DNA of 64,000 bases. It comes from Phycisphaerales bacterium (GTDB lineage Bacteria > Planctomycetota > Phycisphaerae > WQYP01). A program made the translations under genes and the position numbers. The notes beneath the pieces are model-generated. The model had not been told where the DNA came from. It saw only the letters and a program-made list of their open reading frames with translations, and searched no databases. Location of the stretch: contig DAIDJN010000058.1 of NCBI GenBank assembly GCA_027451365.1, positions 32,001 to 96,000 on the forward strand. Direction: 5' to 3'. This document shows, piece by piece, positions 3 to 62,413 of the stretch. The first letter of the stretch is position 1; each line of letters begins with the position of its first letter.

Positions 3-488
3 CACGGAATGGCGGGAGAACTCGGCCATGTGATCGTCCAGCCGGACGGCGAGGTCTGCGGTTGCGGCAATCGCGGCTGTCTGGAAACGCTGTCCATAGA
101 CCCGGTATTTGTGCGGCGTGTCAATCAACGTGCCGGAAGTAAATGGGATATGGAACAAATTATTGATCGTGTCCGTGCCGGCCAACTGGACGTCACAGCA
201 GACCTGCACGCCACGCTGGACGGATTGGCCACCGGGGTGGCGGCGGCGATCAATATTTTTAATCCGGAACTCGTGGCGCTGTGTACGCGCATGTTTGATG
301 TGTCGCCGGAAGCATTTGATTATCTGGGGCGACGCGTGCGGCAAAAGGCACTCACGCCACTGGCACAGCGGTGCAAGCTGATGCGTGTCGGCGGCGACAC
401 ACTTCGTGGCGGAGTCGCGGCGGCCATACATCATGTTGTTGAGTCGCTTGGCCCGCGGATGAACTGGCTCGGGGAAGATAATTCCTGA
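3..488 (+). CDS. ROK family sugar kinase/transcriptional regulator, 5'-truncated by window edge
   Basis: GMAGELGH and CGCGNRGCLE ROK signatures, INIFNPE motif; frame is open to the window start. Confidence 0.9.
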   Translation, partial: HGMAGELGHVIVQPDGEVCGCGNRGCLETLSIDPVFVRRVNQRAGSKWDMEQIIDRVRAGQLDVTADLHATLDGLATGVAAAINIFNPELVALCTRMFDVSPEAFDYLGRRVRQKALTPLAQRCKLMRVGGDTLRGGVAAAIHHVVESLGPRMNWLGEDNS

Positions 489-578
489 CGAATCGCTTTT
501 CTTTCCATGAATTAAAAAAAACGGCAAATGAGCCGAACAGGTGGGGCATTTGCATGGACCGCTTGTCGCGATTGGCCC

Positions 579-591
579 TGCCAAAATGGCA
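579..591. promoter_or_regulatory. Palindrome TGCCA-AAA-TGGCA, candidate activator site upstream of clpB
   Basis: 5-bp inverted repeat with 3-nt spacer; resembles CCTGTCA-GAT-TGACAGG upstream of the hsp20 pair. Confidence 0.4.
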
Positions 592-653
592 AACCGATGG
601 CCCGGTTTGGTCCAAAAAACGCAATTATTTCACAAATCCGCACCCTTTTCTGT

Positions 654-670
654 TTGGTACGCTCTTTGTT
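654..670 (+). promoter_or_regulatory. sigma54-like -24/-12 promoter (variant GT at -12) for clpB
   Basis: TTGGTACGCTCTTTGTT: GG(656-657)-N10-GT(668-669); near-identical element upstream of hsp20. Confidence 0.55.
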
Positions 671-818
671 ACGCGGAGTGCGCTGGCTGGTAAAATCGGA
701 TCCATGCAAAGGGCATTTGCGATCCGGTCGCCGTCGGCGGTGTCGCCCGCGCCCGGCATCTTCGTGTGGACTCAAACCGCTGGCATCGGTCGGTAGCGGC
801 GCGACGATTGGAGCATAT

Positions 819-37658: not shown

Positions 37659-38121
37659 TCGAATTATCTAAGTATTCTATTTGACTTTCGCGCGGCCATA
37701 ATTTATTCTTTGGCTCGACGACGGTCGAGTTCGTGACTGGTGCAGGCCCGGTCGCTTGCGGTCGTCCGCAAACAGATAGTTTTTCCGGGAATTGAGAGCA
37801 AGTTGCGATTTTCAATTCCCACCATTGCCACGGATCGGCTCGCATTCGTATGTGTAAATCAGTTTAGGAGGCAGGGTGCAACGTACCGCCGCGGATTCGG
37901 TGCCACACGGGAGCAGACGCATGTGTACATGCCTTATGTTTGACGCAGCGCACCGGGCGGAAGCTCAGGGCCATCTGCAGGCGCCGCACGGCCCATCGCC
38001 TTGCACGCCAGAAAATGTAAAGGCGGCTGTTGTCTATACGGCGCGTTGTGTTCCAACTTGAACATATATGATCAGTGCCTGTGCGGTTCTAAATTACCAG
38101 CCTACCCAAAGAGGTAAAAAA

Positions 38122-44100: not shown

Positions 44101-47100
44101 GCGGCCTCGGCCAACGACAGCGTGATCCTTGGTGGAAATTTCACCACAAAGGATATTGGCATGGCCGCGGGGGGCGGCTCATTTACGCCCGGCGGCGCAG
44201 TTGTCACGCTTTCCGGCACCATGAGCCTGCAGGGTGGCGCGGTCAGTTTCGGCGCGGCGCTCGGAGCCATCAATTTGACCGGCACGTTAGAAAACGGGAC
44301 GCTTTCCAGCGGAACGGATACAAATGGCAACGAATATCTTTCGGTCGGAGCTTATTCCTCAGGCACTTTCCAGAATATTACTCTGGGAACAAATTACGCG
44401 CTGGTCAATAACGGTTCAACTTTAAATGTAAACAATTCGCTCGCCAATGGTGTCGGCCTGGACCTGGGTGGAAAAACGCTTACCTTAAGCGGCCAGAATA
44501 CCACGTTGCGGATCAACAATACCCTGACCAATCCCAATACCCTGCAAAACGGCACACTCACCCTCTCGGGTGCCGGCGCACAGCTATACGCGCAAAGCCA
44601 GATGACTTTGGGGGCCACGCTGACACTCAATTCCACTTCCACCGGCGGCAATGGAAATTTCATCAACGGCTTTGGCGTGGTCAACGCGGGCAATATGAAT
44701 GTGGGATATGACTCCAACTCCGGAACCACCGTAACCGGAAACGCCCTGGCTATTTACGCTGGCTTTACCAACGTGGGTACCGTAACGGTTTATGGTGGCA
44801 ACAACCTGTTCATTGGCGAACCAGCCAACCTCAACGGCGCTGGCAATTACGCCAGCACCTGGAGCAATTCGGCAACGATTCAATCCAATGACAGCTTCGG
44901 CGGCACATCTGGAATTACCCTGCAGGGCAATTGGTCCAACACCGGCACCATCGTCGCCAATCCTGGGGATCTGGTTACGCTGGCGGGCATTTTCCATCCA
45001 GCGGATGTCGCCATGGCCAACGATGGCAGCGCGAATGCAACTTTCAATATGAACGGCACAACGACAACCGCCGGCGCGGTGGTGAACATTACCGGTACGC
45101 TGGTGAATTCAGATGCCGGGGCGTCCAGCAGCTCCAATACACTTTATTTCGGTGCCGTCGGCAGCAGCAAATCGTCCACCGGGTCCGGCAACTACACAAG
45201 CAACGGTTCCTGGAACCTGGGTGCCTCCAATGGCAGTGGTGGATATCTGGCCGGAACCATTCAGGGCGGCACAATTTACCCGCAGGATTCCACCGGCGCT
45301 CAATATCTGAATATTATCAACGGAGTATTTCAGAATGTGACGCTTCAAAGCAATCTTAATCTGAATAATGCCAACAGTTCGCTGACCATTTCCAATGCGG
45401 GTTATGTTTCCGGTTCACCCAACAGCAGTACCGGCACGTATGATGGTTTGGTTTTCGCCGGAACGGGGAATTACAGCATTAATATTTCCGGACAGAACGC
45501 CTCTCTGATTTATAGCGACGCTACCTATTCCGGCGGCGGTTCGGTGCCGCAAACCATCGCCAGCGGCAAAATAAACGTCACCGGAACTACCGATACAATT
45601 TCCATTCACAACGGACCGGTGACATTGGCCGCCAATGCCAGCATCAATGTCTATGGCACCGGCACGTATGTGCCGTCCACCAGCGGAAGTGGCTACGACG
45701 GCTCCGGCAACTATAGCGGCTACTATATTCCGCCATCCGCAACCATTAACGGCAGTGGTAGCTTTTCCAATCTTGGAAATATCAATGTCGGTTCCGATGG
45801 TTCCGGCCATAATTATTCCGGCATCAAACTGACCATTGACCCGGCCAATTTCACCAACTTGGGCACCATTACCGTGTTCGGCGGCAGCGGCAACTACGGT
45901 GCCAATACTCTGCAAATCGGCAATGGCAACGATTCCACCACCTGGACCAACAAGGGCACAATTCAAACCAACGATGCGGATCACGGCGGAGCGTTCATCA
46001 CGCTTACCGATAACTGGTCCAACACCGGCTCGATTGTTCTTTCCGGTAGCGACAGAATTGAACTGGGCGGATTCTTCCACCCATCGGATGTAGCCATGGC
46101 CAACAATGGAAGCACCAATGCGACGTTCATCGCCAATGGAGCTGCGGTTAATATCACCGGCACGCTGATCAATTCGGATGGCAACGGCCCGAACACTTTG
46201 AATTTCAATGGGCCGGGAACCAGTGTTTCCGGAACCAGCACCAGCAATGGCACCTGGAATCTGTCTGGTGGAACCATTATTGGCGGCGTTATAAACATCA
46301 ATGCTGAATCAAACGGCAATCCCTATCTGACCATCGGAAGCGGCATGCTGGAAAATGCAACGGTCAACGGAAACCTTAAAGTCGGCGGAATGCTTACTTT
46401 GGCCAACGTCGCTTTAAATGGCAACATCGATCTGTTCGCCGCCGACAGTGGAATATCTATTTTCAACAGCATCGCCAATCCGCAGGGGCTGGTCTCCGCC
46501 AGTCCGTTCACTATTTCCACGGTTTATGGCGGGACCATCAATTTTAATGATGTGACGGACGCCAACGGTAATCCCATTGGCCAGACTCTGGCCAATGCGA
46601 CGATCAATCTGGCCGGACAGACATATTACAGTGCTTTTATTCGTGGCGGAAATGGCACGCTGACGATTGCCAGTTCCACCGTCATTAACGGAGAAGTTGC
46701 CGGGCAGGGCTATTATGGGAATATTACCTATGGCAATGTGGATATGCTTGGCAGCAGCATTGTGAACTATGGTGCCATCAATGCTGGTGTGGGCGTGAGT
46801 TATCAGGGGCTTACGGTCGGATCTTCAATATTTGTCAACCATGGCATTATGACTGTTGAGGGTGGCAACAATCAGTTGGCATTCACAGCCTACGGCCTTC
46901 CTATCAGCTTGATCAATGCCGCGGATGGAACCATTACCGCCAGCGGGTACGGATCAGATATTTTTATCGACGCGAACTGGAGCAACCTGGGCAAAATTGC
47001 ACTTGGTTCCGGCGATACCATTGAACTTGGCGGTACATTCCACCCGGCGGATGTCGGCCTGGCCACGGATCTTCCTTCCGGTACACCGCAGGGTACATTC

Positions 47101-50100
47101 ACGCCCGGCAATGGTACGGTCAATCTTACCGGCACTCTGGTGAACGCAGATGTCGGCGGTAACGGGCCGAATACCTTGGATCTCGTGACTGGCGGAACGC
47201 CCTGGTATTTTGATGGCGGCACCATCAAGGGGGGCATACTGATTGGCGAGGATGCCAGTGGCAATTCCTATCTTTCCCTCAAGCAATCCGGTCAGGGCAC
47301 CCTGCAGAATGTGACGCTGGGAAGCAACCTTAGCTTAGGTGGCAACTCCAGTACCTTGTATATAGCCAATTCGACCGGCGCGGGAAACCAGAATGGCATC
47401 ACCGGAACCGGTCAACAGGTTGTCATTAACGGCAGTTACGAATCCATCAGCTTTTCCGATGCCACAGATGGCGGCGGTAATGCCATTGGTCAGACACTGG
47501 CGGATCTGACCATAGACCTGGCGGGTCAGAATGCCGGTCTTTCTACCGGCACCAGCCTGACGGTCGCTTCCAATGCCACCATCGAAGGTACCGGCTACAA
47601 CTATTCCAACTACTATCAGAACACTATTTCCGGCGGCAGTCTGGCGAACCTGGGCAACATCAATGCCGGTTCGGCCTCTGCCACCGGCTATCTGATTGTT
47701 GAACCCAAAACGTTCACCAATCAGGTGGGCGGAACGATGATTGCATTTAATGGCTCAACCCTGCAAATCGGCAGCGGCGCTTTCGGCACAACCTGGTCCA
47801 ATGCCGGAACCATCACCACGGCCGTGACTGCGGGGTTGCAAACCGCGCCGGGTACAGCTGTTATCACACTTGATGACAACTGGTCGAACACAGGAACAAT
47901 TTCCGCCAGTGCCGGTGACACCATTAACTTTGGTGGAAAATTCCATCCCGCAGATGTCGGTCTTGCGACCGATCTTGGCACCGGGGCCACACAGGGAACG
48001 CTTTCGCCCAGTCAGGCCACGCTGAATCTCACCGGAACGCTGATTAATTCTGATACCGGTCCGACCGGTTCCAATACACTGAATTTCCCGGTTGGGGGAA
48101 ATATCTGGAATATGACCGGTGGCACTGTTCTGGGCGGATCGGTCATCGCGCAGGACAATTCGGGCAACCAATTCCTGAATATAGCGACCGGATCATTCCA
48201 GAATGTGTCGCTGCAAAGTAATCTGGCTCTGACTCCCAATTATTCCAGACTGACTATTCTTAACAGCGCTGGGACGGGTCTGCAAAATGGACTCGTTACC
48301 AGTGGCCAAACCATTACTCTTTCCGGCTATTTGTCTGAATTGGCATTTACCGACGCAACTGATTCACTGGGCAATCCGATTGGCCAGACGCTGGGCAATG
48401 TCACGATTGATTTTACCAATAGCACCACCAGCACCCTGGCCGTTGGCGGAAGTTTGACACTTTCGGGCAACACCGTGGTTAACGCCCTGGCCGGAACCGG
48501 CAACGCCAATGGTGGCGTGATTAACGGCACCACGTTGATCAATGATGGCAGCATGAATGCCGGTTCGGCTGGCGCTGCTGGTTCGTTGGAAATTGTTACA
48601 ACCAACTTCACCAATTCCCAGACCGGTACGCTTACAGCCTACCCCAATTCTGTCCTTCAAATTGAGCCGACTGCATGGTCCAACGCCGGTGTCATTACCG
48701 GTTCAACCGGATCCACCATTGACCTCGGCGGCACATTCCATCCCGCTGATATCGGCCTGGCGACCGACCTTGCCGGCGGAGCCGGCCAGGGAACCTTCAA
48801 TACCAATGGCGCGCAGGTGAATATTCTGGGTACGCTGGTCAATGCGGATGCAGGCGGTACCGGCGTCAATGATCTTGTATTCAATGCGGCCAGCGGTGTT
48901 TATAACTTGGACGGCGGCACCGTTCAGGGTGGTGCCATCAGTATGGCTACGCAGACTTCCGGCCCGGGCGCGGGCGATGGATACCTGGTCTTCAGCGGCG
49001 GTACTCTGCAGAATGTCACTTTGAACAGTGATCTGATCCTGAACAATGCCGGCCAGCCCGCAATTCAGAATATCAGTTCACTGAACATCAACAACACGCT
49101 GGCCAACCAGGTTGGTTTAAACACCAATGGTCACAATATCATTCTTTCCGGCACCAGTGCAGCGCTGACCTTTAATGATGTGGTGAATACCGGCACCTTC
49201 GCAATTGCAGCGCAGACTCTGGCCAATACCACGATCACCCTGTCTGGAGCCAATGCTACCATTACCGGGACACAGGAGCTGAATTTTGCGTCCACGGCAA
49301 TCGTTAATGCCGTGGCCGCGAATAGCGGTAATATTATCAACGGCGCCATTGTCGATACCGGCGCCCGGGTGAATGTCGGCTCGGCAACGCCTACCGCAAC
49401 CACTCTTTATCTGGATCCAACAACGCTGACCAACAGCGGTGTGATTACTGTGTTTAATGGCGACCAACTGGTGTTTGGCCTGTCCAACGGCACATCTGCC
49501 AATAAGACGGGCGGAATCATTCAAACCCAGACCGCCGTAGCCGGTTCCGGTGCAGGTTCGGCGATTCTCACATTCGTTGGTCCGCTGACCAACTCCGGTA
49601 CCATCACCGCGGCCACCGGAGATACCATCAATCTTGAAGGTTCATTTACCGCTGCGGATGTGGGGCTTGCCACCGCAGGCCCGCAGGGAACCTTTACGCC
49701 AAATGGTGCTACAGTGAATTTCACCGGGACGTTGGATAACACTGGCAATGCTCTTCTATTTGGTCCAACGACAGGCGCGTGGAATATGTCTGGCAATGCC
49801 ACGATTATGGGCGGTAGCCTCTCGGCCAATATGCAAAGCTCCGGCCCTGATGCGGGACAACCATTCCTTGTTATTACCGACGGTACTTTTCAGAACGTCA
49901 CAATCAACAGTGATCTGACTGTTTCCGGCAACCTTAGTTTCGCCAGCACTTCCGCCAACACCACCGGCGTGGTGGATAGCGGCCATACCATTAATATTGT
50001 GGCCGCCGGCGGCACGCTGACCTATGTTGAACCGCGTGATCCGTTTTCTGGCCTGGCACCGGCGCAAACCCTGAATTCCACCGTTAATTTGCTGGGTGCT

Positions 50101-50802
50101 GGATCTACCATAAGTGGTTCGGCTGGCACGGCCCTGACATTGGGAACGTCTGCTGTCATCAACGGTCTGGCTGCAAATTCCTCCAATACCTTTACCATGA
50201 CGGCGCTGACCAATAACGGCCAGATTAACGCCGGATCCGCAGCGGTTACGAACAACACCCTTACTGTGAATGTGGTGCAATTTGCCAACAACGGTTCCAT
50301 TACGGCCAATACCGGTTCTGCGGTTAACCTGGTGTTTGACCCGGCCGCATCGTGGACCAACATGGGCACACTTTCTGCGGATGTCGGCGGTACAATTAAT
50401 GTAAAGAACAACGATGGTTCACCCCTGAATCTGATTCTTGGTACCGGCAGTACCATTGATATACAGATTGGTTCAGGAGGTCAGAGTGGATTGATTGACG
50501 TGCTGAATGGTTCGCTCACCATTGATCCGAATGTCACGCTGAATTTAAGTCTGGCACCCGGTGCTGTCGTAAATGGGCCATACACTTTGTTTAATTTCAC
50601 AGGTTTGCTTGGCGATCATTTCGCTACGGTGAATTCCAGTTTTGGAACGGTGTCCTACAACGCCGATTCGATCACTATAAACGGAGCCAGCACGCCGGAA
50701 CCCGCGGCGCTGGCGCTGTTTGCCGGTGGCAGTGCCCTTTTGCTGATCGGTCGGGGCAAACGCCGCAATGCAAAACGCAACCACGTTCGCGTTGCATGTT
50801 AA
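38122..50802 (+). CDS. Giant (about 4225 aa) secreted beta-strand repeat protein with PEP-CTERM tail
   Basis: GAGG RBS, signal peptide ending AQA, W....GNW....NWS, about 12 degenerate WSNxGxI...GDTINLGGxFxxADxG modules, tail TPEPAALALFAGGSALLLIGRGKRR. Confidence 0.9.
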   Translation: MKSKMVNRLMAAATAAMFGTFLGHTAQANSPTVNNVDWILAGSGNWNAAGTNWSGGIIPNNTSTNVYDVSLDLADGGIYNVTIPSNASYNVDGLTLSNANAALTIAANGILDISQPDNNGASGTLSVQQGDFTLNGTLANSVLSVGVGGTFSSNSGTFENVVLGSNLSVGSYQALNVTDSLNNSYGLNAAGELITLNVGAGLVFTDTFDPKFNRFVPNILNGTMDMTGYNNYLTAQNGPTELAGTVNVLAANGTEYMNGNGLLWNNGYINVGSNGTIADAVSGSTLYINASAFNNTGNITVFNSSTLNATAFTNSGTVATAASAGIQTGTGSAIMDFKGDWSNTGTIEAAAGDTINLGGAFNPQDIGLSTMAGVTNGAFSPDGATVNISGTINNTGNNLNFAAVIGPWNLNGAVITDGTLTVQNGAGAQDIKILNASVQNTKLGSNLIIQNNGYSGGLTVNNTVANPLGLDFNGYNITLAGSYASLTFNATYDRVFAAYVPESVNGIINLAAYQSQLNGNQIAIFNSAINSYSTSGTNYIGGGTITNAGVVRVGSDGTLGNTVTGDTLTINSNNFTNAASGTIAVYNGDILNFNSYGGTTNAGLITTAGAATLQSGTASATINFSDGWSNTGTIRATAGDTINLGGTFNAADIGIAGATGQGAFTPNGATVNLSGTMNIQGGVATFDAAHGLINLGGGTFENGTVVAQNNTGTQYLAISSGTFQNITLGSNLSVAGSLYLTGTTENTNELNFNGYAVTLTGSGSVLNPYDVSVNGVYVPEVLSGTINLAGNNSSVNAYQGPLTLAGTLNALAPGNFNFIGGYSGPVTNTGLIYVGSAAIGGNAISGAALTVRPTFINAGTMTAFNSDFLNLNSNTWSNSGVIQTGVAAGLQAGPGSATLNIGGAGGNWSNSGRIVAAAGDTINLGGTFNAADIGIAGTAGEGTFAPNGATVNLTGTMNIQGGTATFDAAHGQMTLSSATIENGTLVSQDSRGNSYLNFGSATFQGVTLGSNLLVNGNNSTLTINGTLAVPQGLNIGGYAVTTSGSATNIVVNDADQYLSSGLVYSAQMLNGTINLAGAADTLTSQNSLTLAGTINALAADSYDTISNVAGILTNSGSLNGGSATVSGTALNIAGSAFVNSGTITQFAGDTLSLGSTVWSNTGTITGTGVGGGGINFGGQFTAADIGIAGTAGEGTFNPNGAKDVLNGTMNIQGGTATFDSAHGVFIFTGTIENGTLVTQVIGGNQLLQINGGTFQNVTLGSNLALGGPNDPNAITLTIANTASDAAGLVLNGNTVNLLGNSATLNYVDASNGSDVAQSIDSGVTNLSGKDAAINTNGTLTLEQGAVINSLAGNHGENIINGNSFVNQGLINVGSPTVTGNTLEILAAGFTNATTGVITVYNGNDLNISSANWINDGLIQTSGAAGLSSAGGASLTFNGSWTNNGQIKVTAFDVVNFGGSQQTGTGTISVAGYTPVQLTNTGSIAIGSATQNVSAFINAANFTNSSTGKLEVFTGSELQIGDIYTNSNSTNSGLIETSAAAGDTSASGATLTFAGNWSNTGTIAATYGDTVNLTGTFSMASIGLNGGGTQGTFTPGGANINLYGNIDQQGGSTLNLGQTGNPAHIGTLTIEKHGVYTLENGATLANAVLSIASGGGSSSYTGTVSVAGYANATFQNVTIGSLPTGSGIGLSNTGSTLTVANTVANPIGLNLGGTNVSLGGQNDALAFRDASNGGSDVAQTLDDMTTITGAGDTITTNGLLTLAGTVNVIIPVGNNKSGEAFLSGATIVNSGNINVGFDGTTSNTTANNILVINPVSFTNNSTGVITVYNSNVLDIAATNWSNAGTIQTAAAIGDTPAAGSGAVLEFNGSWTNTGTIRLTSFDEVVFGSNPGVGSTGTIGTAGQIVQASNAGKIDVGSAGTTGLYTLISTNTFTNSSTGKIEVFNGNTLLLGDPYGYPTTWSNAGTIASATAAGDQTGGGATIYFYGNWSNSGSIAASANDSVILGGNFTTKDIGMAAGGGSFTPGGAVVTLSGTMSLQGGAVSFGAALGAINLTGTLENGTLSSGTDTNGNEYLSVGAYSSGTFQNITLGTNYALVNNGSTLNVNNSLANGVGLDLGGKTLTLSGQNTTLRINNTLTNPNTLQNGTLTLSGAGAQLYAQSQMTLGATLTLNSTSTGGNGNFINGFGVVNAGNMNVGYDSNSGTTVTGNALAIYAGFTNVGTVTVYGGNNLFIGEPANLNGAGNYASTWSNSATIQSNDSFGGTSGITLQGNWSNTGTIVANPGDLVTLAGIFHPADVAMANDGSANATFNMNGTTTTAGAVVNITGTLVNSDAGASSSSNTLYFGAVGSSKSSTGSGNYTSNGSWNLGASNGSGGYLAGTIQGGTIYPQDSTGAQYLNIINGVFQNVTLQSNLNLNNANSSLTISNAGYVSGSPNSSTGTYDGLVFAGTGNYSINISGQNASLIYSDATYSGGGSVPQTIASGKINVTGTTDTISIHNGPVTLAANASINVYGTGTYVPSTSGSGYDGSGNYSGYYIPPSATINGSGSFSNLGNINVGSDGSGHNYSGIKLTIDPANFTNLGTITVFGGSGNYGANTLQIGNGNDSTTWTNKGTIQTNDADHGGAFITLTDNWSNTGSIVLSGSDRIELGGFFHPSDVAMANNGSTNATFIANGAAVNITGTLINSDGNGPNTLNFNGPGTSVSGTSTSNGTWNLSGGTIIGGVININAESNGNPYLTIGSGMLENATVNGNLKVGGMLTLANVALNGNIDLFAADSGISIFNSIANPQGLVSASPFTISTVYGGTINFNDVTDANGNPIGQTLANATINLAGQTYYSAFIRGGNGTLTIASSTVINGEVAGQGYYGNITYGNVDMLGSSIVNYGAINAGVGVSYQGLTVGSSIFVNHGIMTVEGGNNQLAFTAYGLPISLINAADGTITASGYGSDIFIDANWSNLGKIALGSGDTIELGGTFHPADVGLATDLPSGTPQGTFTPGNGTVNLTGTLVNADVGGNGPNTLDLVTGGTPWYFDGGTIKGGILIGEDASGNSYLSLKQSGQGTLQNVTLGSNLSLGGNSSTLYIANSTGAGNQNGITGTGQQVVINGSYESISFSDATDGGGNAIGQTLADLTIDLAGQNAGLSTGTSLTVASNATIEGTGYNYSNYYQNTISGGSLANLGNINAGSASATGYLIVEPKTFTNQVGGTMIAFNGSTLQIGSGAFGTTWSNAGTITTAVTAGLQTAPGTAVITLDDNWSNTGTISASAGDTINFGGKFHPADVGLATDLGTGATQGTLSPSQATLNLTGTLINSDTGPTGSNTLNFPVGGNIWNMTGGTVLGGSVIAQDNSGNQFLNIATGSFQNVSLQSNLALTPNYSRLTILNSAGTGLQNGLVTSGQTITLSGYLSELAFTDATDSLGNPIGQTLGNVTIDFTNSTTSTLAVGGSLTLSGNTVVNALAGTGNANGGVINGTTLINDGSMNAGSAGAAGSLEIVTTNFTNSQTGTLTAYPNSVLQIEPTAWSNAGVITGSTGSTIDLGGTFHPADIGLATDLAGGAGQGTFNTNGAQVNILGTLVNADAGGTGVNDLVFNAASGVYNLDGGTVQGGAISMATQTSGPGAGDGYLVFSGGTLQNVTLNSDLILNNAGQPAIQNISSLNINNTLANQVGLNTNGHNIILSGTSAALTFNDVVNTGTFAIAAQTLANTTITLSGANATITGTQELNFASTAIVNAVAANSGNIINGAIVDTGARVNVGSATPTATTLYLDPTTLTNSGVITVFNGDQLVFGLSNGTSANKTGGIIQTQTAVAGSGAGSAILTFVGPLTNSGTITAATGDTINLEGSFTAADVGLATAGPQGTFTPNGATVNFTGTLDNTGNALLFGPTTGAWNMSGNATIMGGSLSANMQSSGPDAGQPFLVITDGTFQNVTINSDLTVSGNLSFASTSANTTGVVDSGHTINIVAAGGTLTYVEPRDPFSGLAPAQTLNSTVNLLGAGSTISGSAGTALTLGTSAVINGLAANSSNTFTMTALTNNGQINAGSAAVTNNTLTVNVVQFANNGSITANTGSAVNLVFDPAASWTNMGTLSADVGGTINVKNNDGSPLNLILGTGSTIDIQIGSGGQSGLIDVLNGSLTIDPNVTLNLSLAPGAVVNGPYTLFNFTGLLGDHFATVNSSFGTVSYNADSITINGASTPEPAALALFAGGSALLLIGRGKRRNAKRNHVRVAC

Positions 50803-52689: not shown

Positions 52690-53358
52690 CTAGTCAGGTA
52701 GACCGAATTTATAACGAAGAAGCTGCACTAAAAACATTTGACGGCCGAAAGACAGCCCGGACCCGAAGCGGGTATTAGAAGGTCCTTCGATGATAATGTT
52801 CGCATTGTTACTGCCGGGATACTGGAAATGAATACCCGATGTATACACGCGCGATGCTCCGGTAATCGTGATTTTCTTTTCCCAGCCCAGTTTGCCCACT
52901 CCGGCAAAAATAGTCAGGTCTTCGCCGCGGGCGGTTAATTCCACTTTGCCCGCCACGCACAGGATTGCAAAGCTCCAGAACAATATGGAACCAAGTAAAA
53001 ATGGAATCCCGAAAAGCGACATGACCAGGTCGAATTTGCCCGCAATAATTTGGCTGCCGTAAATGCCGCCAAGTGAACCACCCGACCAGACGCACATGAA
53101 CGGTATAAGAAAAAACGCCACGGGTGAACGTGTGGTTGCGCCGGCTGTCCAGCCGTCCATTGTCTCCCGGTACCAGCACCCTTTGGGCGGGTTGGTGGTC
53201 GGATCAAACCTCGGGGGTGATTTGGTTGCGGGCACCGCGCCGACCAATTCACTAAGTTGATAGGCATGGCTGCAAGCGCGGCAAAAGGCCACATTGTTCG
53301 CCACGTTCACGTCGGTATCACCCAAGGGTGCCCCGCAATTGGGACAAACCAGTTGCAA
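52690..53358 (-). CDS. Hypothetical membrane protein with N-terminal zinc ribbon
   Basis: CPNC...CRAC, two hydrophobic segments, TTG start with GGAG. Confidence 0.75.
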   Translation of the reverse strand: MQLVCPNCGAPLGDTDVNVANNVAFCRACSHAYQLSELVGAVPATKSPPRFDPTTNPPKGCWYRETMDGWTAGATTRSPVAFFLIPFMCVWSGGSLGGIYGSQIIAGKFDLVMSLFGIPFLLGSILFWSFAILCVAGKVELTARGEDLTIFAGVGKLGWEKKITITGASRVYTSGIHFQYPGSNNANIIIEGPSNTRFGSGLSFGRQMFLVQLLRYKFGLPD

Positions 53359-53390: not shown

Positions 53391-53431
53391 TGCCACACCC
53401 AACACAATGAGGCCGCTGGGGATCGAACCCA
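53391..53431. repeat. Left att core (duplicated tRNA-Lys 3' 24 nt plus 17 nt of downstream sequence)
   Basis: TGCCACACCCAACACAATGAGGCCGCTGGGGATCGAACCCA, identical to 62073-62113. Confidence 0.97.
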
Positions 53432-53598
53432 CCACTCCCATAGCCTTATCATCGGGAAATACGCAAGGTTCCAAAGTTAGTGAGCCATCTGTGATACCAT
53501 TTGACCCGGATTTAGACGCCATAATCAAGTCATGGCCGACCCTGCCTGAACCGATCAGGCTGGCCATTGCGGCATTGGCCGGGACTGGTGCGAAATGA
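53407..53598 (+). CDS. Detached 3' segment of the integrase gene (alternative C-terminus restored on excision)
   Basis: Begins MRPLGIEP in the same frame as the integrase crossing the right att; continues ...DPDLDAIIKSWPTLPEPIRLAIAALAGTGAK. Confidence 0.8.
   Translation: MRPLGIEPTTPIALSSGNTQGSKVSEPSVIPFDPDLDAIIKSWPTLPEPIRLAIAALAGTGAK
53490..53501 (+). repeat. Putative integrase arm-type site
   Basis: TGTGATACCATT, identical to tandem copies at 61936-61959; degenerate copy immediately upstream. Confidence 0.75.
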
Positions 53599-53792
53599 GC
53601 AATACCAATTTACAAATTCGCAATGCCGACGATTTACGAAAATACTTCGCAAATGCGGACCCGAAAGACGTGGCGGCACTTTGGGAGGTTATTCGGGCTT
53701 GGCCGGCAATGCCGCCAGGTGTTAAGAAAGCGATTTTGTCGATTACATTGATTGATTGGGAGGCCGCGCGCAAGCTGGCGGCTAAAAAATAG
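53595..53792 (+). CDS. Small protein paralogous to the integrase alternative tail
   Basis: VIRAWPAMPPGVKKAILSI aligns with IIKSWPTLPEPIRLAIAAL; ATGA overlap with the preceding stop. Confidence 0.7.
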   Translation: MSNTNLQIRNADDLRKYFANADPKDVAALWEVIRAWPAMPPGVKKAILSITLIDWEAARKLAAKK

Positions 53793-53853
53793 GATCAAAT
53801 ATCGCGTTGCCACCGGCGATAACAGGTGGCATATCCGTGTTGGAGTGTTTTTT

Positions 53854-54084
53854 ATGGTTGCCAATGTTGAAAACTTTCTGCGAGCGGTTAAGCGTAACGG
53901 CTTTATGCTTTCGCCCGTGGTGCCGGGGTTGGCCAGCTTATCGCCGGTTGGATGGAAATGTGAGCCAGGCGATTTTTGCGTCCCTTATGTGATGGTGCGG
54001 CCAGCCGACCTTAAAACGCCAGAAGCTGTCATTCGCAAAATCCAATCCCGTTTTGCGAATCGCGAGGCATTAACCGCCGCGTGA
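53854..54084 (+). CDS. Small hypothetical protein
   Basis: GGAG upstream of ATG 53854; co-oriented with neighbours. Confidence 0.55.
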   Translation: MVANVENFLRAVKRNGFMLSPVVPGLASLSPVGWKCEPGDFCVPYVMVRPADLKTPEAVIRKIQSRFANREALTAA

Positions 54085-54177: not shown

Positions 54178-55104
54178 GTGAAGATTATTGGTGTAACGAT
54201 TGGTACAGGCGGCCAGTTTCCGGCGATGGCGGAATTGGCCGCAAAGCGGTTTGAGGCCGCAACCGGCCTTGAATGCCGGCTCTTAAAACCATCCGACTAT
54301 TTCCCGCGGGCAGGAAAACTTGAATCAATGTTAGCTCGCTATAAGACGTTTGAAGCGTTTCCTGACGCGGATGCCGTGGTCTACTTTGACGCCGATCTGG
54401 CCTTTGTCCGCAAATGGAACCCTGTTGAATTGTTTGCCGCAGAAAGTCGGCTGATGATGGTTGTTGACGGACATTGGGACGGTCTTGAGGCTGAAGCAAG
54501 AAAACTTGGGATGCCCTTGACGGACTACCATAACGCGGGCTTTCACCTGGCCAACCGTGAACATCACGCGGAATTGTTCCACCGGTTTTTGAAATGGTTT
54601 AATGAAATTCCCCGAATGGAATACGGCGATCAATCCGCGTTTAATCTTTTCCTGCAAATGACGGGCACGCCAGTTGCAGATTTGCCGGCAACGTATAATT
54701 TTTTTGCCCATGAATGGCCGAACGCGAAAGAGCAAATTGACCCGATGGGGGTTATTGGATGGCATTGCGCGGCGAATGAAAAGCCTTTATTCCTTGAAAT
54801 CGCTTCTTTGGGTGTAAGAGAGTGTTTTAAGCCGGATCCGGTCCCGGACGGTCTATGCAATCGCCGTTTTTGGTACAACTACGGCGGCGCATCTGACCGC
54901 ATCATGGTATTAAGCCCTGACGGGCGAATTGTCCATGGATGGGGCGGCTACGAGATGTTTTGGTGGATGAAAAATGGTGATCTGTTATTCTCTAACCATA
55001 AACGAAAAACGTGCAGTTTCGTTCGAGTAGGCGATGGATGGGCGGGCCACTGGTTGGTGGATTCCCTCCCGGCGTGCACACTAAAACCAGTCTTGCTGCC
55101 ATAA
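54178..55104 (+). CDS. GT-A fold glycosyltransferase (GT8-like), element cargo
   Basis: RYK, VYFDADL (DxD), YHNAGF, GDQSAFN, LPATYNF, WH. Confidence 0.8.
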   Translation: MKIIGVTIGTGGQFPAMAELAAKRFEAATGLECRLLKPSDYFPRAGKLESMLARYKTFEAFPDADAVVYFDADLAFVRKWNPVELFAAESRLMMVVDGHWDGLEAEARKLGMPLTDYHNAGFHLANREHHAELFHRFLKWFNEIPRMEYGDQSAFNLFLQMTGTPVADLPATYNFFAHEWPNAKEQIDPMGVIGWHCAANEKPLFLEIASLGVRECFKPDPVPDGLCNRRFWYNYGGASDRIMVLSPDGRIVHGWGGYEMFWWMKNGDLLFSNHKRKTCSFVRVGDGWAGHWLVDSLPACTLKPVLLP

Positions 55105-55114
55105 GGTGGTGCGA

Positions 55115-55768
55115 CTACCTTGAAACTTCAACCGTGAGGAAACCTGAATCGTTGGCGAGATTGCCGGTGTAGTTATACATTTGCATTTTAAGCCTGCCGT
55201 CTTGGCTTGCCCGCAGGTGTGCGTAGTCGCCTATTTTGAAGGGTTTGCCGTTTCCGATCTTGCCCTCAAGGTAGCCGTGAAAAATATGGTTCACAGGATC
55301 ATTCAATCCATCTGGTCCGCAGGCATACCGCAGATGCTTTCCCCAGGTGCTCCAACGTCCGCTGGCGCTGATCGTCACTGATTCGCCTTTCCGCAGGGAA
55401 ATTGTGGTCTGCCAGTTTTTTGTAGCATAGATGCGAAACTTCAATCCGTGAGCGATTTGGGGTTGTACGGCCGCGATCCATTTCTGTATCAGTACTGCGT
55501 CTTTCAAATTTCCGCGTTGCATGACGTGTTTTTCCGCAATCTTGAGCCGCGCGACTTCCTGGCGACGGGCCGCTGCGACGGCATCCTGATATTTCTGGCG
55601 GGCCACGCGGATCGCGATCCGGGCACGATTGATCGCGGCTAAAGCCGTGATGGAATTTGGCAATGGAAGCGGTGGCGGATTAACGGGCGATGTCCAGGCA
55701 TTCAGTATGGACGACAGGCAAACAACCGTGGTGAGTGAAACAACAACAACAATTCGAGCAAACTTCAT
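55115..55768 (-). CDS. Secreted protein with helical region and C-terminal PA-IL/LecA-like beta-sandwich
   Basis: Signal peptide; ATKNWQTT.I.L.KGE.VTISASGRW...GPDG...L.GKIG.G.PF.IG...G.L...N.G pattern. Confidence 0.6.
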   Translation of the reverse strand: MKFARIVVVVSLTTVVCLSSILNAWTSPVNPPPLPLPNSITALAAINRARIAIRVARQKYQDAVAAARRQEVARLKIAEKHVMQRGNLKDAVLIQKWIAAVQPQIAHGLKFRIYATKNWQTTISLRKGESVTISASGRWSTWGKHLRYACGPDGLNDPVNHIFHGYLEGKIGNGKPFKIGDYAHLRASQDGRLKMQMYNYTGNLANDSGFLTVEVSR

Positions 55769-55885
55769 GACTGGTTCTCCTTGATTCGCAGAATTCGCAC
55801 TGGCTAAAACCAATCGTATCACGCGCGGGCGCCGCGTGCAAAAGCGTTAAGGGCCGTGCGAAGCTAATTTTTGCGATATATAGGT

Positions 55886-56098: not shown

Positions 56099-56213
56099 AA
56101 CCAAGTCTAAAAACGCGCATGCGCGATTCTGCGATTGAATAGCGATTAACCAATGTAAGCCAACGCACAGTGCCTTGAATCGGCACCGCTGGCTTGTTTT
56201 GGAGAATCGAACC

Positions 56214-56414
56214 ATGGAACGCGAGGAACAGCCCGAACTTCAAACGCTTCTGACCCTTGAGCAATCCGCACAGGTCTTGCAGGTAAGCCTGCGGACGATT
56301 TGGAAGCTGATCTCTACGGGCGAACTCCCCAAGCCGTTGCGGATCGGCCATAGCCGCCGATTCCGGCGTGCCGATCTGGAAAACTATATTGAGACCCTTA
56401 CCGCGGCGCGTTGA
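56214..56414 (+). CDS. Excisionase/AlpA-like HTH protein
   Basis: LLTLEQSAQVLQVSLRTIWKLISTGELPKPLRIGHSRRF; GGAG RBS. Confidence 0.85.
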   Translation: MEREEQPELQTLLTLEQSAQVLQVSLRTIWKLISTGELPKPLRIGHSRRFRRADLENYIETLTAAR

Positions 56415-56664
56415 TTATTCTAAAAAAATAGGCCGTTGGCATCCGACAAAAAACACCAACGGCCATAAAAATCCGGAGGCCGCGAAGTTATGCGGTATCG
56501 GCCGCACACTTTTTTTGGGCCTCGTTTCAAGCGGACGCGCACCGGCACCTATCCGGCTGGGCGGTAAACGCTGCGTCTGGCGAAAACAGGAGCTATCGGC
56601 CTGGGTGGCTGCCGGATGCCCGACGCGGGACGAGTTTAAAAAACTGCAAAGTCTGAAAAAGTGA
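56368..56664 (+). CDS. Second AlpA-like HTH protein; start unclear, possibly 5'-damaged
   Basis: EAAKLCGIGRT.......GRAPAPIRLGG...WRKQELSAWVAAGCP; only in-frame start is a GTG inside the previous gene. Confidence 0.65.
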   Translation: MPIWKTILRPLPRRVDYSKKIGRWHPTKNTNGHKNPEAAKLCGIGRTLFLGLVSSGRAPAPIRLGGKRCVWRKQELSAWVAAGCPTRDEFKKLQSLKK

Positions 56665-56725: not shown

Positions 56726-58783
56726 ATGATACACATTCCTAATGCCACACACAAGTTGAAGGAATCGCTTTGTCTGATTCCGACCGAACTCAAAGAAATT
56801 CAGCAATGGGTTATGTGGCGAATAGTTGACGGGCGAAAAATTCCGTTCACCACCACCGGGCGCTCCGCTTCCTCAACCAAACCTAAAACGTGGGCCAGTT
56901 TTGATGCCGCGATTGCCTCCTATCGGTCTGGCGGATTTGCGGGCATTGGCTTTGTCTTTGCAAAGGATGATCCGTACTGCGGTATCGACCTTGACCATTG
57001 TATAAAACCGGATGGCACACTTGAAGCGTGGGCCGCGAAGATCATTCAAGACTTCGCAAGTTATGCGGAGGTGTCACCAAGTGGTACCGGCGTAAAGATT
57101 TTTATTCGTGGTAAGAAGCCCAGTGCTAAATGCCGCTTCGAGATTAACAAGGCCACCGGCCAGCATATCGAGATTTACGACAGTGGCCGGTATTTCACGG
57201 TCACGGGAAATCGCTGGGCGGATTGCCCATTGGTTATTTCCGATCGGCAACCGAAGCTTAATACTCTGTTCGCAGAATACTTTTCAGGGCAAGCGCCGCC
57301 AGTAACAAAGCCAGAATTACCACCCCTTACTGAGCATGTGAAAAATAATGCTTCCACACATGAGCGGTGCCACAGGTACTTGGACACGATTCCGGGGGCC
57401 ATTTCCGGGCAAGGTGGCCACAACCGGACATTGGAGGCCGCGGCAACATGCTTTCGTTTTGGGCTGTCCGAAAGCGACGCATGGAATCTACTGACCGAAT
57501 TCAATGAACGATGCCAACCCCCATGGAATGAAAGGGAACTCCGCCACAAGTTGGCTGACGGCGAAAAGCTTGTACGGGGCGCCGGCGAATTTGGAAAATT
57601 GCTAGATGGGCGGTCCGAACCAGTAGCCGCGGCACCGAGGCCCACAACGGCGGCGCCCGCAGCGGTTCCGAAAGCTCCCGCGTTGAAGTTTCTGGACGTT
57701 GCGAATTGCCGAAATTATTCCAAACCACAGGCGTGGGCGTTCAAGGGATGGATCCCATCGGGCCTTGTCACGGTTCTGGGCGCCCATGGCGGCACGGGAA
57801 AAAGCATGTTCAGCCTGATCGCGGCTATTTGCTTGGCGGCTGGTCATGAATTCCTTGGCCAACAATGTGAGCCAATAAAGGCGTGCTACTTCTCCGCTGA
57901 AGATGGTCCGGATATTCTTTATCCAAGGATGGCCGCGATCTGCGACGCCCTGGATGAAGACCCCGCAACGCTGGCTGACCGCCTGACGGTCATTGACGCC
58001 GAAAGCAACCCAGTCCTATTTGAGGAAGTCACAACCGGCAAAAGCGCGATGATCACCACGCCGACCTATGCGGCTCTGCTGGAACACATTCAGCAAACCG
58101 GCTGCAAGTTTGTGATCATTGACGGCGCTTCCGACACTTATGATGGTGAGGAAAACGCACGCCGGCAGGTGCGGGCATACATGCGAAGCCTGCGGATTCT
58201 GGCACAGGCAACAAATGCTGCAATCGTCCTACTGGCACACGTCCCAAAGACCAACACACGCGGCCAAAGCACGGAAAGTTATTCCGGTTCAACCGCCTGG
58301 CACAACAGCGCCCGGTCAAGGCTGGCGCTGGTTGTGGATGAATTTGCGCCCGGGATAATTGAACTCCGGCACGAAAAATGCAACGTGGGAAAACTTCAAT
58401 CCGCATTTCAATTCAAGTTTTCAGATAGCGGCATTTTATTACCGGTTGGCCAGTCCGGCGAGGTTAATTCCAACGCCGACAAACAGGCGATATTAAGAAT
58501 AATCATGGAATTTAACGCCCGCGGAGAGACCCTTTACGCCTCGACCGCGTGTGCGCAGAACGCATTCAAGGCAATGGCTGGCGAGCCTGGATTTCCAAAG
58601 AAAATGCGCAAGCCAGCATTCGATAGCCTGATGCGGTCCATGGCGAGAGAGGGTCTTATTCAAATAGAACAAATTCAAACCAAACAGCGGCGATTTGTGG
58701 ACGGATGGCGAATCGCAGAACTGGGTATTGCCGCGATAAATGTAGACCTTGCCACCGGCGAAGTTTTGGAGTCGCAGCCATGA
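56726..58783 (+). CDS. Primase-polymerase (NrS-1-like AEP) fused to a RepA/AAA_25-type helicase
   Basis: QWVMW, GIGFVF, GIDLDHC, EVSPSGTG, IEIY..GRYFTVTG; helical linker CQPPW..REL; GAHGGTGKS, SAED, IIDG, H, GSTAW. Confidence 0.88.
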   Translation: MIHIPNATHKLKESLCLIPTELKEIQQWVMWRIVDGRKIPFTTTGRSASSTKPKTWASFDAAIASYRSGGFAGIGFVFAKDDPYCGIDLDHCIKPDGTLEAWAAKIIQDFASYAEVSPSGTGVKIFIRGKKPSAKCRFEINKATGQHIEIYDSGRYFTVTGNRWADCPLVISDRQPKLNTLFAEYFSGQAPPVTKPELPPLTEHVKNNASTHERCHRYLDTIPGAISGQGGHNRTLEAAATCFRFGLSESDAWNLLTEFNERCQPPWNERELRHKLADGEKLVRGAGEFGKLLDGRSEPVAAAPRPTTAAPAAVPKAPALKFLDVANCRNYSKPQAWAFKGWIPSGLVTVLGAHGGTGKSMFSLIAAICLAAGHEFLGQQCEPIKACYFSAEDGPDILYPRMAAICDALDEDPATLADRLTVIDAESNPVLFEEVTTGKSAMITTPTYAALLEHIQQTGCKFVIIDGASDTYDGEENARRQVRAYMRSLRILAQATNAAIVLLAHVPKTNTRGQSTESYSGSTAWHNSARSRLALVVDEFAPGIIELRHEKCNVGKLQSAFQFKFSDSGILLPVGQSGEVNSNADKQAILRIIMEFNARGETLYASTACAQNAFKAMAGEPGFPKKMRKPAFDSLMRSMAREGLIQIEQIQTKQRRFVDGWRIAELGIAAINVDLATGEVLESQP

Positions 58784-60021: not shown

Positions 60022-60354
60022 ATGGGTAGACCGCAAAAACAGATTGACGCCAGGGCCGTTGGCGCATTGGCAATGGCGGGGCTGTCTAACAGGCAAATTT
60101 CCGAAATTTATGGCATTGGTGAAGCCACAATCCGCCGACGTTTTGGCGCGATTGTCAAAGAAAACAGGCTGGCAATGCGGATTAACCTGCGGCAAAAGCA
60201 AATCGAAACCGCCATGGCTGGCAATACGGCCATGCTGATATGGCTTGGCAAGCAATACCTTGGCCAAACCGATCGGCCTGCGGAAACATTCCCTGCAACG
60301 GTTCAGGTTGTGCACCCGGTCGGGTTTAACTTCAGGAAGGTTGGCCGCAAATGA
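60022..60354 (+). CDS. Terminase small subunit-like protein
   Basis: MGRP, HTH (GLSNRQISEIYGIGEATIRRR), A..GNTAMLIWLGKQYLGQTD motif that I recognise from phage TerS-like proteins. Confidence 0.7.
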   Translation: MGRPQKQIDARAVGALAMAGLSNRQISEIYGIGEATIRRRFGAIVKENRLAMRINLRQKQIETAMAGNTAMLIWLGKQYLGQTDRPAETFPATVQVVHPVGFNFRKVGRK

Positions 60355-60572
60355 TATTATTCCGGTGCACCAAATGCCGCCAACGATTGCATGATGCGGT
60401 CTGGTACTTTTGCCGGGACTGCCAACGGTCATTGTGTGGATGGTGTGCATACACGATTGACGGGCCGCGTGGTGAGACTGCATTTTGCGAAAACTGCTGC
60501 CGGCGATTGGTGGATAACCTGACCAGTGAATTAAACCGCCGCGAGGAACTTGACAAAGCGGCCGCAGTGTAG
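60351..60572 (+). CDS. Small protein with four CxxC pairs (zinc-finger-like)
   Basis: CTKC, CRDC, CGWC, CENC; ATGA overlap with terS-like gene. Confidence 0.65.
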   Translation: MILFRCTKCRQRLHDAVWYFCRDCQRSLCGWCAYTIDGPRGETAFCENCCRRLVDNLTSELNRREELDKAAAV

Positions 60573-60578
60573 GATAAT
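60550..60578 (+). promoter_or_regulatory. sigma70-type promoter for the HTH-integrase unit
   Basis: TTGACA-N17-GATAAT; ATG lies 7 nt after the -10. Confidence 0.7.
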
Positions 60579-60783: not shown

Positions 60784-62151
60784 ATGCCAAACGTATTCAA
60801 AAGGCGTATCTGGATTGATGCCAATGGCGTCCAGTGTTCCAAAACAACACCGGGGGCCAAGGCTAAGATTTTACCTGACTGGTATTTCCGTGTGATGACT
60901 TCAACGGGCCGCAAACTTGTGCGAGGATATTCTGACAAGGGCGCGACTGTCGCCAAACTCAATGATATGGTCAAACGCGAGGCCCGTGGTGAACAGGGGC
61001 TTGTCAATCCATTTGAATCGCACAATAAAGCACCGCTGTTGGATCACGTCCGGCAGTATGTTGCCGAACTGGCCGCCACGGGCCATGACACGGCCAATAA
61101 CCGCATTGTGGAACTGCGGCTTAATAAAATGGTGTCCGCGTGCGGCTGGAACAGGTTGGTGGATGTTTCCGCGGCAACATTCAGTAAGTTTCGGGACACG
61201 GGCGACATGCTTAAAGCCGCGCCAAAGACCCGCAATGATTATCACCAGACAGCGCGTCAATTCTGCCGCTGGTGTGTTCGCAATGGCCGGATGGCTATTG
61301 ACCCGTTTCAAAGTCTGGCCACCGTCAAAAGCAATGGCGACGTTCGCCGGCAACGCCGGGCAATGACTGATCAGGAAGTCCAGCGACTGCTGACCGTGGC
61401 ACCAGAGCCGCGTAGAACCGTTTACCAAACCGCGCTGCTGACCGGCTTACGCCGTGCCGAACTTGGCCAGTTGCGGCTTGATGATATTCACCTTGACGCA
61501 CCAAAGCCGTTCCTGACAGCCAGAGCCAGCACCACCAAAAACGGCAAGGCTGCGGTTATCTTCCTCCGCGACGATCTTGTTTCAGCCTTGCGACGGTTGC
61601 CGGCACGGACAGATGGGCTGCTGTTCCGCGTTCCAAAAATTGAGACGTTCTATAACGATTTGCGGGCCGCTGGGATTGACCGGACAGACAGCAAGGGCCG
61701 GATACTTGATTTTCACTCCATTCGGCATACGCTTGCGACCAACCTTGGCCGGGCTGGCGTGTCCATCAGAACCGCAATGGAAGTGATGCGGCATTCCGAT
61801 GCCCGCCTGACCACTAAGACCTATACCGATGCCAGCCAGTTGCCCACCATAGACGCGATTGAGTCTTTGCCACGTTGGGAAGTCCATCAGCAGGTGCAGC
61901 AAGCCGTTGCCACCGGCACGGATGGCCAAAAAGTTTGTGATACCATTTGTGATACCATTTACCCCGCACAGTTAGGCGTTTGTACGCATTCAGACGCACG
62001 GTTGACAGTAAATGCCACTGATGACCAAACCACTGTAATACAAGGGGAAAACCTGCAAAACAAGCTGTTTCCTGCCACACCCAACACAATGAGGCCGCTG
62101 GGGATCGAACCCAGGACCCACAGATTAAAAGTCTGTTGCTCTACCAGCTGA
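60784..62151 (+). CDS. int: Tyrosine integrase (integrated form, reads through att into antisense tRNA)
   Basis: TGLRRAE, TTKNG, FHSIRHT, MRH, TYT catalytic set; ORF crosses the att core. Confidence 0.95.
   Translation: MPNVFKRRIWIDANGVQCSKTTPGAKAKILPDWYFRVMTSTGRKLVRGYSDKGATVAKLNDMVKREARGEQGLVNPFESHNKAPLLDHVRQYVAELAATGHDTANNRIVELRLNKMVSACGWNRLVDVSAATFSKFRDTGDMLKAAPKTRNDYHQTARQFCRWCVRNGRMAIDPFQSLATVKSNGDVRRQRRAMTDQEVQRLLTVAPEPRRTVYQTALLTGLRRAELGQLRLDDIHLDAPKPFLTARASTTKNGKAAVIFLRDDLVSALRRLPARTDGLLFRVPKIETFYNDLRAAGIDRTDSKGRILDFHSIRHTLATNLGRAGVSIRTAMEVMRHSDARLTTKTYTDASQLPTIDAIESLPRWEVHQQVQQAVATGTDGQKVCDTICDTIYPAQLGVCTHSDARLTVNATDDQTTVIQGENLQNKLFPATPNTMRPLGIEPRTHRLKVCCSTS
61936..61959 (+). repeat. 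Tandem putative arm-type sites inside the integrase ORF
   Basis: TGTGATACCATT x2 (encodes CDTICDTI). Confidence 0.75.
62073..62113. repeat. Right att core
   Basis: 41-bp identity with 53391-53431; overlaps tRNA T-arm and acceptor stem. Confidence 0.97.
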
Positions 62152-62162
62152 GCTACGGCCTC
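62090..62162 (-). tRNA. tRNA-Lys (anticodon UUU), CCA not encoded
   Basis: GAGGCCG/CGGCCTC acceptor stem, TAGCTCAG-TGGTAGAGC D arm, ACAGA-CTTTTAA-TCTGT anticodon arm, GGTTCGATCC T loop. Confidence 0.97.
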
Positions 62163-62413
62163 AGAGATTGGGGCACCCGATTGAATTCCCAATCGAGAGC
62201 AACGTATTTTACGCTTTAAGCGGTGATTGGCAAGACGGCGGCAAAAAAGCCAATTTTTCGACTCCATCCGGCGGCTAAAAGCTGCCCGCCGGTCCGGGCC
62301 GGGGATTGCCGGACTTGACGAACGGTTAATCTCCTACTATTCTTATCGGAATAGTTCCAAAGGGTTGGAGATGTGCCCAGCCCCTTGGACTGTCACCCGG
62401 CAGGAGCTACACT

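Follow-up and report, generated by a model that had tools for sequence, protein, structure and literature searches.

Organization of the element and its target site

The window, a stretch of 64,000 nucleotides, contains an integrated element of 8,682 bp whose ends are formed by an exact 41-bp repeat and whose target is the 3' end of a tRNA-Lys(TTT) gene on the minus strand (Table 1). Its gene content is that of a phage satellite. The HTH protein encoded upstream of the xre-int unit, which may be small-terminase-like by a C-terminal motif only, gave weak HTH matches and no terminase match in NCBIfam. The promoter that the first-pass annotation had placed at 60550 is a good sigma-70 match (11 of 12 consensus positions) and points into the gene for the 64-aa XRE regulator and int; transcription is predicted to begin close to the XRE initiation codon (ATG), so that the message may be leaderless.

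On the host side, a membrane-protein gene (52690-53358, minus strand) begins 33 bp to the left of the element and would directly adjoin the tRNA in the empty site. A gene at 38068-50802 (plus strand) codes for a 4,244-aa repeat-rich protein, probably a surface protein, with what is presumably a PEP-CTERM-like end.

Table 1. Features of the 8,682-bp element and its integration site (coordinates of the window)
Feature	Position	Strand	Evidence or remark
Left att core (41 bp)	53391..53431	.	Exact repeat of 62073-62113; holds displaced 3' fragment of tRNA-Lys, minus strand
P' side of attP	53432..53502	+	Low-complexity linker in circle-form Int; candidate arm-type repeats at 53480 and 53491
W-P-x-L-P hairpin, last 31 residues of the 498-aa attP-form Int	53503..53598	+	In frame across core; family profile 56.8 bits
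65-aa ORF, diverged hairpin copy with its own predicted N- and C-terminal helices	53595..53792	+	14.9 bits against a null below 10
ORF, function not assigned	53752..54084	+	Start 53752 or 53857; no family match
Cargo glycosyltransferase family 8	54178..55104	+	PF01501, E 2.8e-9
Cargo 235-aa protein	55115..55822	-	Weak PA-IL-like match PF07828, E 0.006, under Pfam cut-off
Two excisionase/AlpA-like HTH genes	56175-56414, 56368-56664	+	PF12728, phrog_66, phrog_2790
Primase-polymerase / AAA_25 helicase	56726..58783	+	PF13481, phrog_1829
HTH protein	60022..60354	+	Weak HTH matches
Sigma-70-type promoter of xre-int unit	60550..60578	+	TTGACA-17-GATAAT, 11/12 consensus
XRE-type HTH regulator, 64 aa	60586..60780	+	phrog_8 and related profiles
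Tyrosine integrase, integrated form, 455 aa	60784..62151	+	PF00589, phrog_1
Right att core	62073..62113	.	Within int, overlaps tRNA 3' end
tRNA-Lys(TTT), integration target	62089..62163	-	

Two forms of the integrase

The catalytic domain of the tyrosine integrase Int (PF00589, residues 194-351, E 1e-18) ends around residue 351, and the att core ends at residue 444. The integrated form passes through the right core and stops 12 codons further on, in the tRNA gene read in antisense. When the ends of the element are joined in silico to represent the circle, the frame continues across the 41-bp core to give 498 instead of 455 aa, ending in a W-P-x-L-P two-helix hairpin; the last residues of this tail are Gly-Ala-Lys. 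The first-pass annotation had described the tail as specific to the excised state, and this holds. The two reading frames that it had reported (53407-53598, 63 aa; 53595-53792, 65 aa), overlapping by ATGA, are likewise confirmed, and joining the ends places the 65-aa ORF directly behind int, an arrangement found only in the circle, as had been proposed. Judged from the sequence, integration is an event that cuts the hairpin off Int and leaves the catalytic domain whole, and the swapped-in end would consist of a few tRNA-derived residues in place of the hairpin.

A 9-bp repeat, GTGATACCA, occurs at 61937 and 61949 in the 3' region of int and again at 53491, before the hairpin, where a variant, GTGAGCCA, lies next to it at 53480. 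These repeats are candidate arm-type Int sites and, if they are read in this way, the linker of Int would be attP read as codons. Automated detection of arm repeats worked for no more than 4 of 22 elements.

A hairpin family tied to att sites in Planctomycetota

The tail, proposed earlier as an uncharacterised module, is a conserved one and belongs to a very large unannotated family that extends across Planctomycetota and is tied to att sites, a larger point absent from the first-pass annotation. The family comprises 12,117 clusters at 50% identity (E <= 0.001) in a representative protein library, the best 150 of which are all short proteins of 37-223 aa. Among 301 genomes of the phylum, a single-sequence search found the hairpin in 27 and a profile in 67, the profile having been built from hits in these same genomes. 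In a sample of the class, 292 of 401 genomes (G567 included) match the profile at E <= 0.02; 25 of these, counted by hand, reach nothing beyond 0.001, a range in which the weak hits include dihydrolipoamide dehydrogenase, so that about 267 is the safer number. Planctomycetota account for 76 of the 80 named records recovered by a DNA pattern scan, and the other four may be mis-binned or transferred; by this distribution the host of the window probably belongs to the phylum too. Three loci (L122, L123 and L167) sit in non-planctomycete bins.

About ten hydrophobic positions are conserved within 27 residues of the hairpin, which AlphaFold2 models as two helices (residues 5-16 and 19-33, pLDDT 89). 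No Pfam, PHROG or NCBIfam match was obtained for the tail or the 65-aa ORF, and the hairpin alignment compared with Pfam gave no family, only three scattered single-member rows; a PDB sequence row for the same alignment, PvuII, was discarded as spurious. Foldseek found no match in PDB for the tail model and none in BFVD at E <= 0.001 for the 65-aa ORF, while VIA-align returned no row at Z >= 5 for either model. Its top rows for the tail included the C-terminal domain of CFAP410 (8r9t, Z 4.4, rmsd 1.9, 33 aligned), the dimerisation domain of TP901-1 CI (6fxa, Z 3.9, rmsd 1.8, 30 aligned), the C-terminal domain of CapH (7t5w, Z 3.6, rmsd 2.9, 33 aligned) and, weakly, NblA (2q8v, Z 3.2, rmsd 2.5, 34 aligned), and such values below 5, usual for any two-helix piece, are a lead only. 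The ESM Atlas held unnamed clusters only, below 0.9. A word-index protein search found nothing for the tail or for long motif-bearing proteins, tblastn with a family member gave no match in phage or plasmid collections, and a search of viral contigs found no relative of this Int. We found no published description of the hairpin in a search of mainly open-access literature.

The C-termini of the tails mostly end in R, K or G, and only 5 of 296 end in Ala-Ala; the tmRNA tag of the host ends in LAA. An SsrA-like degron, considered as a role for the tail, was rejected on this count. The motif also occurs in other settings. A 223-aa protein (P0003) combines an N-terminus resembling that of lipoproteins with four hairpin repeats in tandem and seems unconnected with any integrase. 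In locus L006 (about 200-1650, plus strand), a 481-aa frame that is not an integrase has a hairpin-like end and looks to us like a primase and HAD-like fusion.

Int, att and hairpin in other elements

In 22 of 26 elements Int runs through att and on into the hairpin without loss of frame, the 26 being those for which the fetched DNA contained both an integrase on the same strand and a repeat common to the two ends. By eye, L080 also keeps the frame at the tRNA core; the frame is not kept in L134, and no usable core was present for L140 and L170; within the 26, L065 and L066 are near-identical and L045 and L082 degenerate. The loci were picked by the presence of the hairpin, and the count applies to such hairpin-bearing loci. 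Five further loci have an integrase and no repeat, and for most tails the fetched DNA ended before any integrase. A tRNA T-arm motif lies within 450 nt upstream of 169 of 244 tails, against 303 of 3,260 random windows of the same loci, and the frame is open from this motif to the hairpin in 150 of the 169. The first-pass annotation had suggested examining the co-occurrence of the motif with tyrosine integrases and tRNA att sites, and these counts tie the hairpin to both. Many tRNA types in both orientations serve as targets. In some loci (L061, L068 and L037) the tRNA is read in sense with the hairpin frame kept, and the frame is also kept in L061 where the core is the 5' end of a tRNA.

Nineteen integrase sequences fall into two subfamilies, with 25-51% and 40-47% identity within them and 15-23% between them. 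The hairpin is present on both, at a median of 135 residues past the catalytic Tyr. The genome studied here harbors a second hairpin element of 6.1 kb (contig C60, 3042-9115) at a tRNA-Ala, again in frame, and two further tail copies (C18 near 2810 and C57 near 8675).

Excised forms are present in assemblies: intact fusions of Int and hairpin are found in two circular contigs, L094 from IMG/VR (9,200 bp, 99-nt terminal repeat) and L141 (8,171 bp, 55-nt terminal repeat). Fused frames also occur in L155, L062 and L041; the long frames of L078 and L045 were rejected as intact fusions. L094 also encodes an HK97 capsid, a P27 small terminase and a helicase, and resembles a capsid-forming satellite. 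L141 comes from an actinobacterium-labelled bin, through mis-binning or cross-phylum transfer. Xis/AlpA-like genes are present in 16 of the 26 elements. At four loci (L050, L055, L056 and L153) two or three tails are stacked at one site, probably scars of repeated integration.

The 65-aa reading frame downstream of the tail

The pattern that the first-pass annotation saw in both the tail and the 65-aa ORF reflects homology, although the pairwise similarity is weak. A profile made from 27 tails, the 65-aa ORF excluded, gives the significant similarity listed in Table 1, whereas reversed six-frame translations amounting to 3.45 million residues contain no hit at or above 10 bits and the reversed text of the genome itself reaches a maximum of 10.1 bits. 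Compared directly with the tail, the ORF gives no BLASTP alignment and a Smith-Waterman score of 47 across a 19-residue stretch, which 6 of 20,000 shuffles attain, and the two have no detectable DNA similarity. The ORF looks like a real gene by its codon score (0.19, like the genes of the element and the best of the six frames); an open frame of its length arises in 121 of 5,000 shuffles. It keeps most of the conserved family positions, including the Trp and both Pro, and deviates at three, with Met for a 99% conserved Leu, Ser for Ala and Thr for Val/Ile. From its sequence it is a true but diverged and rare member of the family. Its model, built with the tail alignment, has three helices. A terminator considered after the ORF was rejected (z 0.29), and none is listed there.

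No homologue was found for the parts of the ORF beyond the hairpin in the protein word index, metagenome contigs or a genome search; the word-index search with the ORF returned only itself, and the metagenome contigs held no relative. It matches 24 other genomes at E <= 0.05, and the nine loci checked comprise four ordinary tails, the rest being unrelated. Just 2 of the 234 distinct tails with 400 nt downstream, those of this window and of L153, are followed by a complete second hairpin with an ATG that overlaps their stop. Full or partial second copies lie nearby at 10 of the 234 loci, and the eight beyond these two look like scars of repeated integration or duplication. Since ATGA is common at tail stops (67 of 296 tails), the overlap of the two frames alone says little. 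The pairing of a tail with a free copy, as first proposed, is supported as a homologous gene at this locus and is not supported as a general design. Given that a coupled free copy accompanies so few tails, the directionality factor that had been suggested is not a conserved one. The element already has two excisionase/AlpA-like genes. Complex prediction for the tail with the 65-aa protein, both supplied as alignments, scored 0.25 and 0.26 against a mark of 0.32, with controls not folded, and speaks neither for nor against an interaction.

Possible role of the hairpin

We tentatively favour, with a probability of about 0.45, a reading in which self-association of the hairpin promotes integration and is lost on insertion. 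Int of the circle would carry, beyond a long low-complexity linker that holds attP as codons, a C-terminal two-helix hairpin acting as a tethered oligomerisation module. By raising the valency of Int on the circle, this module would make it easier to build the attP complex and to capture attB; its loss on insertion would lower activity and stabilise the integrated state, excision being handled by the Xis/AlpA genes of the element. The 65-aa ORF would be a rare local duplicate of the module, co-transcribed behind int only in the circle, which may dampen Int and would not be a standard part of the system. An interaction surface is suggested by the conserved hydrophobic positions of the hairpin together with a tether of about 135 residues, and self-association by the fact that these positions, about ten, seem too many to bury in a monomer; the weak structural rows, a lead only at Z <= 4.4, include dimerisation hairpins and point the same way. 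The integration-promoting direction is favoured because the truncated integrase of Myxococcus phage Mx8 is described as less active than the excised form (PMC4701971), so that the direction of the effect, activating rather than damping, is borrowed from a system whose tail is not homologous.

The conserved stretch could instead serve attP as a signal in the DNA, or be a helix motif arisen by chance, with no functional part in the protein, as arm-type repeats just upstream in the same frame and scores of about 11 bits for unrelated proteins, for example dihydrolipoamide dehydrogenase, might suggest. However, all synonymous codons are used in the hairpin, stops interrupt the other five frames in 13-63% of cases, the hairpin stays in frame with Int and ends at a median of 24 residues past its Trp, and intact Int-hairpin fusions exist. 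Codon-position information over 180 tails (0.92, 1.21 and 0.43 bits for positions 1, 2 and 3) also places the conservation at the protein level, with a bias from a search pattern in which third positions were unconstrained. This very improbable reading is largely refuted. The main rival to self-association, which we consider possible and somewhat unlikely, is that the hairpin docks on a host protein (a protease adaptor, nucleoid or replication factor) and so sets the lifetime or location of circle-form Int. The motif varies far less than the integrases that carry it and is nearly restricted to Planctomycetota (76 of 80 named records), in keeping with a host partner that is itself conserved. 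The weak structural rows include NblA (2q8v, Z 3.2), a protease adaptor that is small and helical. Proteolysis dependent on attP is also described for mycobacteriophage BPs (PMC4557955); against such a role, the C-termini of the tails are not SsrA-like (Ala-Ala in 5 of 296).

Another reading gives the free 65-aa protein the leading part, binding the Int-tethered hairpin after excision and blocking re-integration. This would resemble SinI/SinR, a titration pair in which the free small protein is homologous to the oligomerisation domain of its target. The retained Trp and both Pro among most conserved positions, the gene-like codon use, the place of the ORF behind int in the circle and the second coupled free copy in L153 are all consistent with it, and the lack of detectable DNA similarity to the tail suggests an old divergence under selection. 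Yet a copy found at only 2 of 234 tails cannot be the normal switch of the family, and partial or scar duplicates of the tail are commoner (eight further loci). In addition, 13 of the best 150 proteins have two or more stretches, so that duplication takes place with no obvious function. The searches described above found no homologue for the remainder of the ORF, the ORF is off-family at three conserved positions, and Xis/AlpA-like genes occur both in this element and in 16 of the 26. We regard titration as possible in this element but unlikely.

A wider form of the self-association reading, which is speculative and which we consider improbable, is that the elements of Planctomycetota have a portable directionality module in common. 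This would be a hairpin that self-associates, lies beyond attP, is swapped between distant tyrosine integrases and is toggled by recombination itself. Some elements, the present one among them, would add a free copy made only from the circle, which would poison the hairpin and so bind the element to replication. If this were true, the hairpins of co-resident elements could cross-talk.

The result that stands most firmly is an unnamed domain, spread across the phylum, which tyrosine integrases lose on integration, as read from the genomes; the att-in-int layout is here common in a whole bacterial phylum, with one conserved domain. It explains thousands of short 'hypothetical proteins' near tRNA fragments as severed integrase ends, and makes the hairpin a sensitive marker of element boundaries in Planctomycetota. 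The same integrase with and without its 31-residue tail offers a clean experimental comparison and, for planctomycete integration vectors, the two forms of Int may behave differently.

Comparison with known systems

The present element resembles phage-inducible chromosomal islands and phage satellites in its size of 8.7 kb, its tRNA site, and its int, XRE regulator, AlpA/Xis and primase-helicase genes without structural genes; it differs in having attP inside int and no divergent repressor pair. With pairs of the SinI/SinR type it shares a homologous free small protein, oligomerisation of the domain being inferred for the hairpin; the free copy, however, is not conserved beside its target (2 of 234 tails).

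In the integration-dependent immunity of mycobacteriophage BPs, recombination at attP takes off a C-terminal segment and acts as a switch (PMC4557955), and the removal of such a segment is common to both systems. The BPs attP sits within the repressor gene, and what is lost there is an SsrA-like tag; here attP lies in int, the XRE gene is 1.3 kb away from the core, and the segment lost is a predicted folded hairpin without an Ala-Ala end. The suicidal integrases of the archaeal elements SSV1, pTN3 and pT26-2 are likewise described as having att inside int, a tRNA target and a gene split on integration (PMC8371274), all features seen here. In the SSV type, the catalytic domain goes to Int(C) and is parted from the N-terminal portion, whereas in the present element it remains complete and behind its promoter, and the loss is limited to about 55 residues.

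The tyrosine integrase gene of the Myxococcus phages Mx8 and Mx9 crosses attP, and on integration the protein receives another C-terminal end while its catalytic domain is retained (PMC6070905, PMC4701971). The latter, a review, presents an att site inside the cognate integrase gene as a feature of very few elements; the Islander report also notes integrases extending across attP (PMC4383910). The Mx8 sequence has the same order of catalytic domain, linker, att and helical end as the element studied here, with the att core in the 3' end of int past the catalytic domain and C-termini that differ between the two forms. However, Mx8 Int scores -0.2 bits on the hairpin profile and its tail is not homologous. 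Mx8 is moreover a 49-kb phage, whereas the elements here are of 3-18 kb and carry one short domain on two distant Int subfamilies, in thousands of clusters. The att-in-int layout was already known from Mx8-like systems, and what is added is a conserved hairpin without a Pfam family.
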